Positions 56,844 through 62,473 are shown, counted from the stretch's first letter. The stretch is 64,000 nt of DNA from Armatimonadota bacterium (GCA_041690135.1 JAWLHY010000007.1:160001-224000); one strand, 5' to 3'. Notes: generated by a model not told the origin, from the letters alone. A program made the numbers and translations.

Positions 56844-57149
56844 CCCAAATCTCCCTTCCCTGTTGTCGTGGCCCGCTGGCCACGCTCCGGCTTCTGCGCC
56901 GGTTCCGGGCAAGTTTCAGCCCGTTTCGATGCTACCTCACAGGTTCGGAGATCAATCGTTACCTGTTGATGGGAACCATGTAGGGAGGTTGCTCGGCTGA
57001 CAAGCAGGAGAGATCTGGGTTTCCGCCCAATGAGGCAGAGTAGATTACTGAGAACCCGGCCTCATTGGTAGGTGGAGGGCGTCGTCATGGCGATGGGACT
57101 GAAGTATTATCCGCCCAGTGTGAAGAATGCCCCGCGGAGCCTGACCGCC

Positions 57150-58532
57150 CCGCGGCCGCTCTAGCAGTGTCTTACGGTCAACGAGTTCAAGGCAGTGCTG
57201 ACCCACGAGTTTGGTCATTTCGCCCAGTCGACCACGCTGCTCGGTCAATACGTCAGCATCGCCAACCGGGTCATCGCCGGAATGGTTTTCGAGGAAGACG
57301 CCTGGGACGAGTAGCTCGAGAACTGGAAAGGCGTGGAGGACTTCCGGATCAGCATCTGGGCCTGGTTGCTGTCCGGCGTCATCTGGGTCTTCCGGATCGT
57401 ACTGGCGCTCCTATTCCACCTCATCAACCTCTTCCACTTCGCGTTGGCGCGCCAGATGGAGTTCCAGGCGGACCGGGTCGCCGTGAGCATCACCGGGAGC
57501 GATGCCCTGGTGAATGCGCTCATTCGCATTCGAGCGGGTGCCGCCGCCTATCAGCAAACGCTGCAGGACCTCCACCCATTGGCCCTGCGGGGGGCTTCAC
57601 GAACGACCTCTACTACCATCAGGAGCGGGCGGAAGCGTTCTTGCGGAAGCTCAATGGCGATCCGGAGTGGGGCAAACGGCCCCGGACTCCCGAGGGACAG
57701 TCCAGCCCGACCTACTTCTGTTCCCTGGCCGGAGAGCGCCCGTCGCTGTTCTCCTCCCATCCCAGCCTTTACGAGCGGGAGCAGAATGCTAAGTGCCGGT
57801 ACTTCCCCAGCGAGGAGAGTGGCGAGCCCGCCTGGGTACTGTTCCGCGATGTCGAGGCGACGCGCCTGGCCGCCACCGTGGAAGCCTATGAGGAAGGTGG
57901 CCTGGCGGTGGATGAGACGCGGGTGAAGAGCGCGGCGGAGGTCCAGCGCGAGATTCGCGCGGAAGAGGCCGAAGGGGTGGTCGACGAGCGCTACGGCGGC
58001 CTCTACGATCTGCGGCTCCTCGGTTTAACCCCCGATACTTTGGAGAAGGCGGTGGCGGAGATGGGTGAGCGGCCGTGGCCAGCCTCTCGAATCCAGCTCT
58101 TTTGCGGTCGCCTCTACCGGGGAGAGGTCCGCGAGCGGATGCAGGCACATCTCCAGCGGCGCCGCGAGTTACAGGAGCTGCGCGCGATTGCCAGTGGACA
58201 GCAGGCCGCTGCGATCATCCACCAGCAGGCACGCCAGACTTGGATCCCCGACTTGCCCGAGATCACCACCGCCACTGGCCGTCCGGCGGGCACGATGCTG
58301 GCGGAGTGGCTGGCGCTCGGTCCACCCTCACCTCCCGTCGCCCCCAGTACCCTGCCGGACTCGTGGTCCCGCAACCGCTGCCGCCAGGATCTCCGCCAGG
58401 AAGGGGAGGATGCTGCCCGCCCTGCTCGCGGAGAGCCTGAAGGCGATCGTGCGCGATCAGGAACAGATCGCCGGCGCCTGGCTCGCCCGGTACAAACCCC
58501 CCAAGTCAGGGTGGGTGATTGGGGAGAAGTGA
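57150..58532 (+). pseudogene. Decayed M48 family peptidase
   Basis: EFKAVLTHEFGHFAQ (HEFGH at 57204) and RQMEFQADRVA in one frame, interrupted by TAG at 57162 and 57312; frameshift in the G6 run 57589-57594; further frame changes downstream; 5' part missing. Confidence 0.8.
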
Positions 58533-58690
58533 GAGGTAAGTGGGGCGGTCGTCTCGCCCGCCAGCATCCGGTCTCGATCAATATCCCGCTGCGAAAGTGG
58601 GGCGGTCGTCTCGCCCGCCAATGAGCGTAGCGCCAGCACTTCCCTCCCTTCATTTCCAGTCCCCACCTCACATCTCTCACCTCTCACTTC
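58511..58690. repeat. Composite repeat: two 26-bp palindromic direct repeats inside inverted heptamer-type arms
   Basis: aagtggggcggtcgtctcgcccgcca at 58538-58563 and 58595-58620; the left arm gaagtgagaggt pairs with the right arm acctctcacttc. Confidence 0.8.
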
Positions 58691-59757: not shown

Positions 59758-60198
59758 TCAGCTCGCGCCGCCGCCCAGCGCCGGTACCTCGCGAGCTTCC
59801 GAAGTATCGCTGGACACCGCCTGGGAAATGACCTCGGTGGCCACCGCATTCAGGTGTTCCTGGAGCGCTTCGTCTAGCGCGAGATACTCGGGCCAGAGGG
59901 TCTCGTCGACGAAGGACTTCGGCACTCTAGCCATCACGGTAGTATAGCGCTGTCGGTAGTAACGGTACGGCTCGATCCCGTAACGGCGCAGGAGCGCCAC
60001 GAACAGCCGGCGCGACCACTGGTTCTCGAAAGTGAAACGGTACTCGATGGCCGGGTCCTGTTCCTGTAACTGACGAAGCCGCTCCAGGATTCGCTCCATG
60101 GCATGGCCGGCGGCCTGCCGTTCTCCCGGAGTGGCGGCACCCGCAAAGAGCGCCTCAATCCGCTTGAGCTTCTCGATCAGTTGCTGAGGATCCGACAA
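59758..60198 (-). CDS. Hypothetical protein (DUF2786-like N-terminus)
   Basis: LIEKLKRIEALFAGAATPGERQAA; AAGGAG RBS. Confidence 0.75.
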   Translation of the reverse strand: MSDPQQLIEKLKRIEALFAGAATPGERQAAGHAMERILERLRQLQEQDPAIEYRFTFENQWSRRLFVALLRRYGIEPYRYYRQRYTTVMARVPKSFVDETLWPEYLALDEALQEHLNAVATEVISQAVSSDTSEAREVPALGGGAS

Positions 60199-61184: not shown

Positions 61185-62324
61185 TTACTTCAGGCCGGCG
61201 TCCGCCAGCGCTTTGCGCAGCGCCGCCTCGTTGAAGCCGACCCCCCGCCACAGGACCTTACCGTCCGGACCCACCAGGTAGTTGGTGGGGTAGGCCAGCA
61301 CCCCGTAGGCCTTGCCGAGTGTGTACTGCTCGCCCCGGCCTCCCATCACCACTTTGAACGTGAAGTTATTCTCGGCGATGTACTTCTTCACCCGGTCTTC
61401 CGGGTCGTTCGCGTTCACGGCGATGATTTCCAGGCCCTTCTTTCCCAGTTCGTTGTAGATCTCTTGCAGGTGCGGAAACTCCGCACGACAGGCGCCTCAC
61501 CCATAAAACCAGAAGTTGATGAGGACCGCCTTCTTCTCCTTGAGGGTCTTCTCCAGGCTGAGGAGTTGCCCGCCCGGCTGTGGCAGTTGGAAGTCCGGCG
61601 CTGGTTTGCCCACCGGAACCAGGTTCCCGTCGAAGTTCGGCCGTTCGAAGAGCCGCGCCCCTTCCGGTGGATTGAAGGCGAACTCCGCCGGCTTTTTCGG
61701 CTGGTTCAGCTTGATGTTGGTCAGGGTGTTGGTGGTGACGGCGTTTCCCTCGGGAGTCGAGATCACGATACGGGTCTGGTGAATGAGCCCGTCCCGTTTT
61801 CCAATGGCATAGGTGGTGGACCGGCCCTTTGCGGGTTCGATCTTCACCAGGTCGCACTCGACGCCCCCTACCTTCGCCGTCCCAACGTGGGTGGCTCCGC
61901 TCTTGGGTAGTCCCCGTTCACCGCCGAAGAAAGCGTCCACCTCCGCCTCCCACTGGCCTCGGAGTTCGGTAGGGGCCGGGTCCAGGTCCTCGCGCAAGTA
62001 CTGGTTCGCCTGGGCAATATAGATGTTGTAATGCTTGCCGTCCGCCGCGAACAGGATCGATCCGCCCGCATCCGCGGGTCCCTTGATCTCCACGCGCAGG
62101 AAGTTCGGCTTCATGGCTGCCAGGGAGCCCTGGGACTTCACCTCCGGCTGCCCCGGACCCGCGTTAGTGATACTCAAGGTGGCGCTGTAGCTTTCGGCCG
62201 CGTGCAGTTTCTTCATCGCCCCCCGGAGAAGCTCTTCGCCCCGGGCGTCGGTCCGGCCCGGCACCGCGACCAGAAGGAAGGCAGCCGCACCCAGCACGGT
62301 CGCGCTGGCTTGTCGCCTGTCCAT
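61185..62324 (-). CDS. Predicted selenoprotein: signal peptide + LolA/DUF2092-like domain + TlpA-like thioredoxin domain with UxxC (Sec codon 61497-61499)
   Basis: ORFs 61497..62324 and 61185..61418 are in the same frame; readthrough gives APDFQL...VLINFWFYG-U-GAC-RAEFPHLQEIY...YGVLAYPTNYLVGPDGKV (379 aa). Confidence 0.88.
61470..61486 (-). promoter_or_regulatory. Candidate bacterial SECIS element
   Basis: Minus strand: TGA GGCGCCTGTC GTGCGGA-GTT-TCCGCAC; a 7-bp stem begins at +11 with G in the apical loop. Confidence 0.72.
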
Positions 62325-62473
62325 GCATTCATCCTTCCAGGCCGCGACCGGCCAATCTCGTGAGTGAGAAGGAACGTGCCGCGGCCCCGTCCTTCATCTT
62401 CGACGCGAGGCGGCTTCTACCTGCCGTATAGTGTGAGTTAATCGGCGAATTGGTCGAATGCAGGGCGAGGAGC

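Follow-up and report, generated by a model that had tools for sequence, protein, structure and literature searches.

Does the in-frame TGA of a thioredoxin-like gene in an Armatimonadota bacterium end the protein, or does it stand for selenocysteine (Sec)? The question was raised by an earlier note on a 64,000 nucleotide stretch of DNA (C7:160001-224000), here called the window, from whose first letter positions without a contig name are counted. The note had read the locus as one 379-residue Sec protein with a TlpA-like UxxC motif, which standard gene callers split in two. The genome to which the window belongs comprises 9.1 Mb in 25 contigs, is 97% complete and has a G+C content of 65%. From sequence comparison and predicted structure we consider it very probable that the gene encodes one 379-residue Sec-containing TlpA-like oxidoreductase, probably exported, in which UGA 276 is recoded as Sec.

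Reading frame and domains of the predicted protein

On the minus strand, positions 62324..61185 can be read as a single frame of 379 sense codons if its only internal TGA is taken as U. The frame of this predicted selenoprotein gene runs from an ATG (62324..62322) to a TAA (61187..61185), and Cys-containing homologues of 380-404 aa cover 92-99% of it. A Shine-Dalgarno-like GGAAGGA, proposed from the sequence, is located 7 nt upstream of the ATG (62332..62338, minus strand). The codon string reported in the earlier note, TTC TGG TTT TAT GGG TGA GGC GCC TGT CGT GCG GAG TTT CCG, is present on this strand with the TGA at 61499..61497, giving the peptide context N-F-W-F-Y-G-[TGA]-G-A-C-R-A-E-F-P-H. 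Translation and the alignment of homologues identify the TGA as codon 276 and as the predicted Sec in the first position of U-G-A-C. The TGT at 61488..61490 (minus strand) encodes Cys279, the putative resolving Cys of the U-x-x-C motif, which is aligned with the second Cys of ResA. Where the note had counted about 100 open codons after the TGA, 103 were found, and these finish the thioredoxin fold, including Y-P346-T.

The protein consists of two domains, an N-terminal LolA fold (DUF2092) and a C-terminal TlpA/ResA-like thioredoxin fold. The LolA-fold domain covers residues ~27-225 (61650..62246, minus strand), as delimited by Foldseek and by PF09865 (DUF2092; residues 144-224, 38.4 bits against a cut-off of 21.2). 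The thioredoxin-fold domain covers residues 238-366 (61227..61613, minus strand), as delimited by PF00578, PF08534 and matches to ResA. The AhpC-TSA family (PF00578) matched residues 238-359 with positions 1-123 of the 124 in the profile (79.1 bits, cut-off 26), and this match spans the TGA, as do those to Redoxin (PF08534, 74 bits, above cut-off) and Thioredoxin_8 (PF13905, 53.5 bits). Continuity of the domain across the TGA supports the single protein proposed in the note.

An AlphaFold2 model built from 15 sequences (mean pLDDT 88.5, pTM 0.65) shows residues 1-22 as unstructured, followed by a beta-rich domain at ~27-225 and a thioredoxin fold at ~240-375. Residue 276 is placed between a strand (266-272) and a helix (277-296), at the N-terminus of the helix. 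Comparison of the first domain with solved LolA structures using Foldseek gave TM-scores by target of 0.65-0.78 and E-values of ~1e-12 to 3e-12 at 14-19% identity, and this likeness to LolA is one of fold only. The second domain resembles ResA, DsbE and other thiol-disulfide oxidoreductases, with TM-scores by target of 0.83-0.89 and ~30% identity, and its sequence match to the ResA structure 4nmu has an E-value of 6.4e-18. In the 4nmu alignment U276 and C279 fall on the CxxC of ResA, E282 and P284 on E-x-P, and Y-P346-T on L-P-T. U276 is thereby aligned with the first ResA Cys, the catalytic position that the note had assigned to Sec. Pro346 (61287..61289, minus strand), which we take to be the cis-proline of the thioredoxin fold, is invariant in the family alignment together with C279, T347, G355 and G363, and the motif columns of U276, E282 and P284 are invariant or nearly so. 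Invariant residues are thus found both 5' and 3' of the TGA.

The N-terminal ~27 residues (MDRRQASATVLGAAAFLLVAVPGRTDA..., 62244..62324, minus strand) form a putative signal peptide or membrane anchor without a lipobox Cys. The hydrophobic N-terminus (MDRRQASATVLGAAAFLLVAVPG...) was recognised by eye, and pLDDT is below 50 at residues 1-22 of the model. This segment may be a signal peptide or an anchor, and the protein would be exported.

The scores of the protein lie under the cut-offs of the NCBIfam models for ResA (84.2 against 170), DsbE (57.8 against 123) and TlpA (30 against 230), of the LolA equivalog TIGR00547 (25.6 bits against 112), and of the three selenoprotein-aware models NF041054 (32.6 against 300), NF053656 (22.9 against 100) and NF040769 (28.5 against 120). 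These scores point to a separate subfamily of the TlpA-like superfamily. Judged by its sequence, the protein is a predicted member of this superfamily that falls outside the ResA, DsbE and TlpA orthologous groups. The lack of a dedicated model for the FWF[YH][GN]-U-G-A-C subfamily fits with its routine shortening in databases.

In a collection of 5.8 billion proteins, the call for the window gene itself is 275 aa long and ends in NFWFYG, the kind of split that the note had expected from gene callers. Of 84 homologues in the database, 33 terminate at NFWF[YH][GN], one residue short of the Sec column, and many of the shortened ones are named 'outer membrane lipoprotein-sorting protein'. The motif FW[FY]xxCxxC occurs in 19 of the 84 matches, the closest being full-length Cys forms (380-404 aa), and two matches bear the names Armatimonadetes or Armatimonadota. 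In one metagenomic protein of 622 aa (P0028), the LolA-fold/TlpA part is preceded by sigma-70 region 2 and region 4 domains (PF04542, PF04545, PF08281). This protein may be either a true fusion or a mis-joined gene call; the combination of domains suggests a possible connection with ECF sigma/anti-sigma signalling.

The database annotation of the 275-aa form as a lipoprotein-sorting protein speaks for a reading in which UGA mainly acts as a stop and the 275-residue LolA-like product is the working form, with Sec read-through being rare, or with both forms serving a purpose. In the same direction, release factor 2 is a competitor of Sec insertion in bacteria. Such a product would, however, end inside the thioredoxin fold just after strand 266-272, with ~38 residues unable to fold alone, whereas the Cys homologues are full length and the 103 codons past the TGA are conserved, with P346, T347, G355 and G363 invariant. 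We consider it very improbable that the UGA serves mainly as a stop.

Sec/Cys exchange and the SECIS hairpin

The protein, with U read as C, was used as a query against 41 relatives and then against 401 genomes of the phylum, 36 of which contained a match at E ≤1e-40. A total of 39 homologous frames spanning the motif were compared (loci L022-L063, the distant Sphingobacteriales locus L042 being left out). In the column of codon 276, TGA is found in 19 of the 39 frames, TGC or TGT in another 19, and the motif is lost in one. The exchange between TGA and Cys, to which the earlier note had looked as a check on Sec, thus falls at exactly this column. The TGA forms, which read U-[G/S/P/T/A]-A-C, were found in 18 genomes belonging to at least four families (f1, f7, f12, f13, f27). 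Most of the Cys forms read CPPC or CGPC.

A quick maximum-likelihood tree was calculated from 32 near-full-length rows; the row lacking the motif and those covering less than 300 residues of the query were excluded. One clade of 25 rows (SH-aLRT 88) contains every one of the 17 Sec rows, with eight Cys rows nested in it, and the seven rows outside this Sec-containing clade are all Cys. The well-supported branches of the tree force at least two switches between Sec and Cys.

Several loci contain more than one copy, or a copy with an altered motif. Locus L024 (G005:C14:76271-78595) has two tandem LolA-fold/TlpA Sec genes, 40-42% identical to the window protein, both with the TGA and the hairpin described below; hairpin pair 17/27 is C-G in one and A-U in the other. 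At L027 (G002:C469) one contig carries both a Cys form (CPPC) and, ~700 bases from it, a Sec form (U-T-A-C); the Cys copy holds five of the seven hairpin pairs, as if converted recently. The genome of the window itself encodes a full-length paralogue at C10:177531-178610 (minus strand), with 30% identity and without a TGA, in which a pattern search found no CxxC. This paralogue, and locus L038, where the two-domain architecture is kept and the motif lost, may be redox-inactive relatives.

One base separates TGA from TGC or TGT, and a nonsense mutation in a Cys-type TlpA-like gene, or a TGA miscalled for a Cys codon, would give the frame seen in the window. Against this, the identical column holds a TGA in 18 more genes, spread over 17 other genomes and at least four families, the downstream frame is conserved and open, a conserved hairpin with compensatory changes is found in the TGA forms alone, and the 33 shortened database calls stop at the identical residue. 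The earlier note had allowed for relatives that all carry Cys with no conserved TGA; with TGA in 19 of the 39 frames, this is not the situation found. We regard a mutation or sequencing error as highly improbable. Among four sequencing runs, the best DNA run contained 0.22 of the sampled words, and no contig from the three DNA runs spans 61497-61499. A metatranscriptome contig of 437 nt (X3) matches 61468-61533, and since it has five differences and unlike flanks it derives from a relative.

Translation with table 11 splits the minus strand into an ORF of 275 aa (61497..62324) and a same-frame ORF of 77 aa starting with GTG (61185..61418), as would be expected of two genes, one for a LolA-like protein and one for a short thioredoxin-like protein started past the TGA; but the 77-aa ORF starts at residue 303 and lacks the redox motif, strand 1 and helix 1, while the alignments to Pfam and ResA run without a break from 234 to 363, and we give two separate genes almost no credence.

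The candidate SECIS hairpin, GUGCGGA-GUU-UCCGCAC (61470..61486, minus strand), starts 10 nt after the UGA and is formed by the codons of R-A-E282-F-P284-H. It has a 7-bp stem and a loop of GUU (or AGUUU), with 16-17 nt from the UGA to the loop. The minimum free energy (MFE) of the 17-nt hairpin is -9.9 kcal/mol (z -4.99), a stability reached by none of 200 shuffles. A 76-nt stretch around the TGA folds no better than its shuffles (z 0.30), and only the 17-nt hairpin stands out. According to the legend of Fig. 2 in PMC13188914, the bSECIS model has an apical loop of 3-9 nt in which a U comes after a G within the first two positions, a distance of 16-37 nt between UGA and loop, and an MFE of -7.5 kcal/mol or lower. 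As far as the model is given in that legend, the hairpin agrees with it in loop size, in the G followed by U, in spacing (16-17 nt) and in MFE.

The 19 Sec forms align without gaps over the hairpin, the arms of which occupy columns 14-20 and 24-30, numbered from the T of TGA. Over these forms 96.2% of the cells are paired, and two pairs are compensatory. Pair 17/27 is A-U in 15 forms and C-G in four, and pair 14/30 is G-C in 11, G-U in five and A-U in two. The covariation score was reached by none of 500 shuffles and every slid register was far worse, although these shuffle statistics overstate independence because related genomes are kin. In both compensatory pairs, one arm has an amino acid replacement (Ala GCG to Glu GAG; Arg CGU to His CAU), and the codon change in the opposite arm leaves the residue as it is (Pro CCG to CCU; His CAC to CAU).

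When the same structure was imposed on the 19 Cys forms, 45.9% of the cells were paired, against a shuffle mean of 44.9%. Of the 19 Sec forms, 18 have at least six of the seven pairs intact; none of the 19 Cys forms does so, and four of the latter retain up to five pairs. The hairpin follows in part from the conserved amino acid motif. The Glu codon is GAG in all 19 Sec forms and the Phe codon TTT in 18 of them, whereas both are variable in the Cys forms. This argues for selection that acts on the hairpin RNA and not on the peptide alone.

In three more TlpA-like ORFs of the same genome, all on minus strands, the redox motif begins with a TGA codon: C5 203891 (YYUGPC), C6 281266 (SWUGPC) and C19 85004 (SWUGPC). 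In each of them a hairpin with the core GGAG-NN-UCC starts 10 nt after the TGA.

Sec decoding machinery and a proposed mechanism

The earlier note implied that the organism possesses selA, selB, selC and selD, and this expectation is borne out by the genome, in which tRNA-Sec, selA, selB and selD all score above their family cut-offs. The tRNA-Sec is located at C1:1152265-1152359 (Rfam 67.2 bits, cut-off 47) and was also recognised by ARAGORN as tRNA-SeC with the anticodon tca. Directly upstream of it on C1 are selA (566.6 bits) and selD (369.6 bits), and selB (383.6 bits) is found on C8. The cluster of selA, selD and tRNA-Sec extends over C1:1149453-1152359, and a tRNA-Ala (ggc) lies ~70 nt past the tRNA-Sec. 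The selD gene has one in-frame TGA of its own, at C1:1150907, in the context KCGG-U-ASK. A UxxK motif is listed for Sec-containing SelD in PMC9312934. With this TGA, Sec synthesis would itself depend on a selenoprotein.

A selA match is present in four of five genomes with the Sec form and in three of five with Cys forms only; G267 (92% complete) is the Sec-form genome in which the match is absent. This distribution is compatible with Sec at codon 276, yet the presence of selA is a weak correlate because genomes with the Cys form may use Sec elsewhere.

Genome-wide reassignment of TGA was considered and rejected, since TGA ends 2051 of the 4609 open frames of at least 400 codons and hence is an ordinary stop. 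There are bacteria in which TGA encodes Trp or Gly, and the UGA might likewise be read as Cys, Trp or Gly through a suppressor or near-cognate tRNA or an altered code, but with TGA terminating so many long frames, with Cys rather than Trp or Gly aligned in the homologues, and with complete Sec machinery and a SECIS-type hairpin present, this is scarcely credible.

For recoding of UGA 276 as Sec we propose a course of events modelled on established Sec decoding in bacteria. SelA would make Sec-tRNA(Sec) from selenophosphate supplied by SelD, and SelB carrying the Sec-tRNA(Sec) would bind the hairpin (61486..61470), leading to insertion of Sec at the UGA. By analogy with the ResA/TlpA family, from which both the chemistry and the location of the enzyme are suggested, the selenolate of U276 would attack substrate disulfides as the nucleophile and reduce them, and the selenenylsulfide formed would be resolved by C279. 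E282, P284 and cis-Pro346 coincide with conserved residues of ResA. TlpA-like reductases usually receive their electrons from a DsbD/CcdA-type membrane protein, and re-reduction would be carried out by such a protein. The genome encodes one CcdA/DsbD-type membrane protein, with a DsbD_TM match of 99.5 bits at C15:8929-9567. Speculatively, the LolA-fold domain could supply recognition of the substrate or of a hydrophobic ligand.

The neighbours of the gene in the window encode a beta-lactamase-family hydrolase, a double GNAT acetyltransferase, a 146-aa protein without a family and an aldo/keto reductase. No conserved neighbour gene was found across the 41 loci, nor anything there pointing to a partner or substrate; the second and third neighbour clusters are antisense shadows of the gene itself. 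Cytochrome c maturation genes are not adjacent to the window gene. Neither the 146-aa ORF (59758-60198, minus strand) nor a 519-aa ORF (57065-58624, plus strand) matched a Pfam family at E ≤0.001, and the longer of the two is perhaps no real gene.

A more far-reaching idea, which we regard as rather doubtful, is that the fusion proteins of LolA fold and TlpA-like domain form a family extending through the phylum (apparently Armatimonadota), and that Sec is both its original and its prevailing state. The SECIS would have been built from the codons of the catalytic C-x-x-E-x-P, where the G of the preceding codon together with GAG pairs with the proline CCN, and TlpA-like genes would thus be pre-adapted to gain Sec. 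As part of the same idea, the LolA fold would point to an undescribed selenol-based reductase of lipid-anchored or otherwise hydrophobic substrates in the envelope. If true, the pre-adaptation would explain why the hairpin is found at the identical offset in four paralogues of one genome.

Comparison with known systems

The gene is most likely a genuine, mis-annotated selenoprotein gene within a known class. Predicted bacterial selenoprotein families already catalogued include a 'Prx-like thiol:disulfide oxidoreductase' (PF00578, UxxC/UxxU) and a 'Redoxin family protein' (UxxC), which are among those listed by two reviews, PMC13188914 and PMC9312934. UxxC TlpA-like selenoproteins having been catalogued, the kind of protein is known, and knowledge of Sec decoding or of the workings of TlpA-like enzymes is left unchanged. 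The words 'LolA' and 'lipoprotein' are not mentioned in the text of PMC13188914, and 'Armatimonad' is not mentioned in the text of PMC13188914 or PMC9312934; the supplementary tables of such papers may list the subfamily. Judged by titles and abstracts, none of the papers found on selenocysteine and Armatimonadetes deals with selenoproteins of that phylum.

The reading of the gene as a selenoprotein would correct a recurrent annotation error, by which 33 of the 84 relatives lose everything from the Sec codon onwards and, where named, have mostly become lipoprotein-sorting proteins. The bacterial selenoproteome would gain a two-domain subfamily, apparently from a little-studied phylum. The 19 Sec and 19 Cys forms are a set provided by nature, with a compact SECIS of 17 nt overlapping the active-site codons, and would lend themselves to studies of Sec/Cys interchange and of the joint use of bases by an RNA signal and a protein motif.

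The window protein resembles the catalogued UxxC TlpA-like selenoproteins in its PF00578/PF13905 fold, in having Sec first in UxxC, in the SECIS that follows at once within the coding region and in the existence of Cys homologues. It differs from them, as far as they can be compared by their descriptions in the accessible parts of these sources, in its N-terminal LolA-fold/DUF2092 domain of ~200 residues. The selenoprotein-aware models NF041054 (ResA-like WAxxUGC), NF053656 (TUGYCR) and NF040769 (SelL-related) likewise describe a thioredoxin fold with Sec in the redox motif, but the motif in the window is FWF[YH][GN]-U-G-A-C and not WAxxUGC or TUGYCR.

With the LolA periplasmic lipoprotein carrier (8v1k, 4ki3, 1ua8) the N-terminal domain has the fold in common. 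Unlike LolA, to which its identity is 14-19%, it is fused to a redox domain, and none of the results indicates a role in lipoprotein transport. As to the ResA/TlpA/DsbE (CcmG) reductases (4nmu, 1su9, 3gl3), the protein aligns with them over CxxC-x-x-E-x-P and the cis-proline at ~30% identity, and is set apart from them by the predicted Sec in place of the first Cys and by the additional LolA-fold domain.
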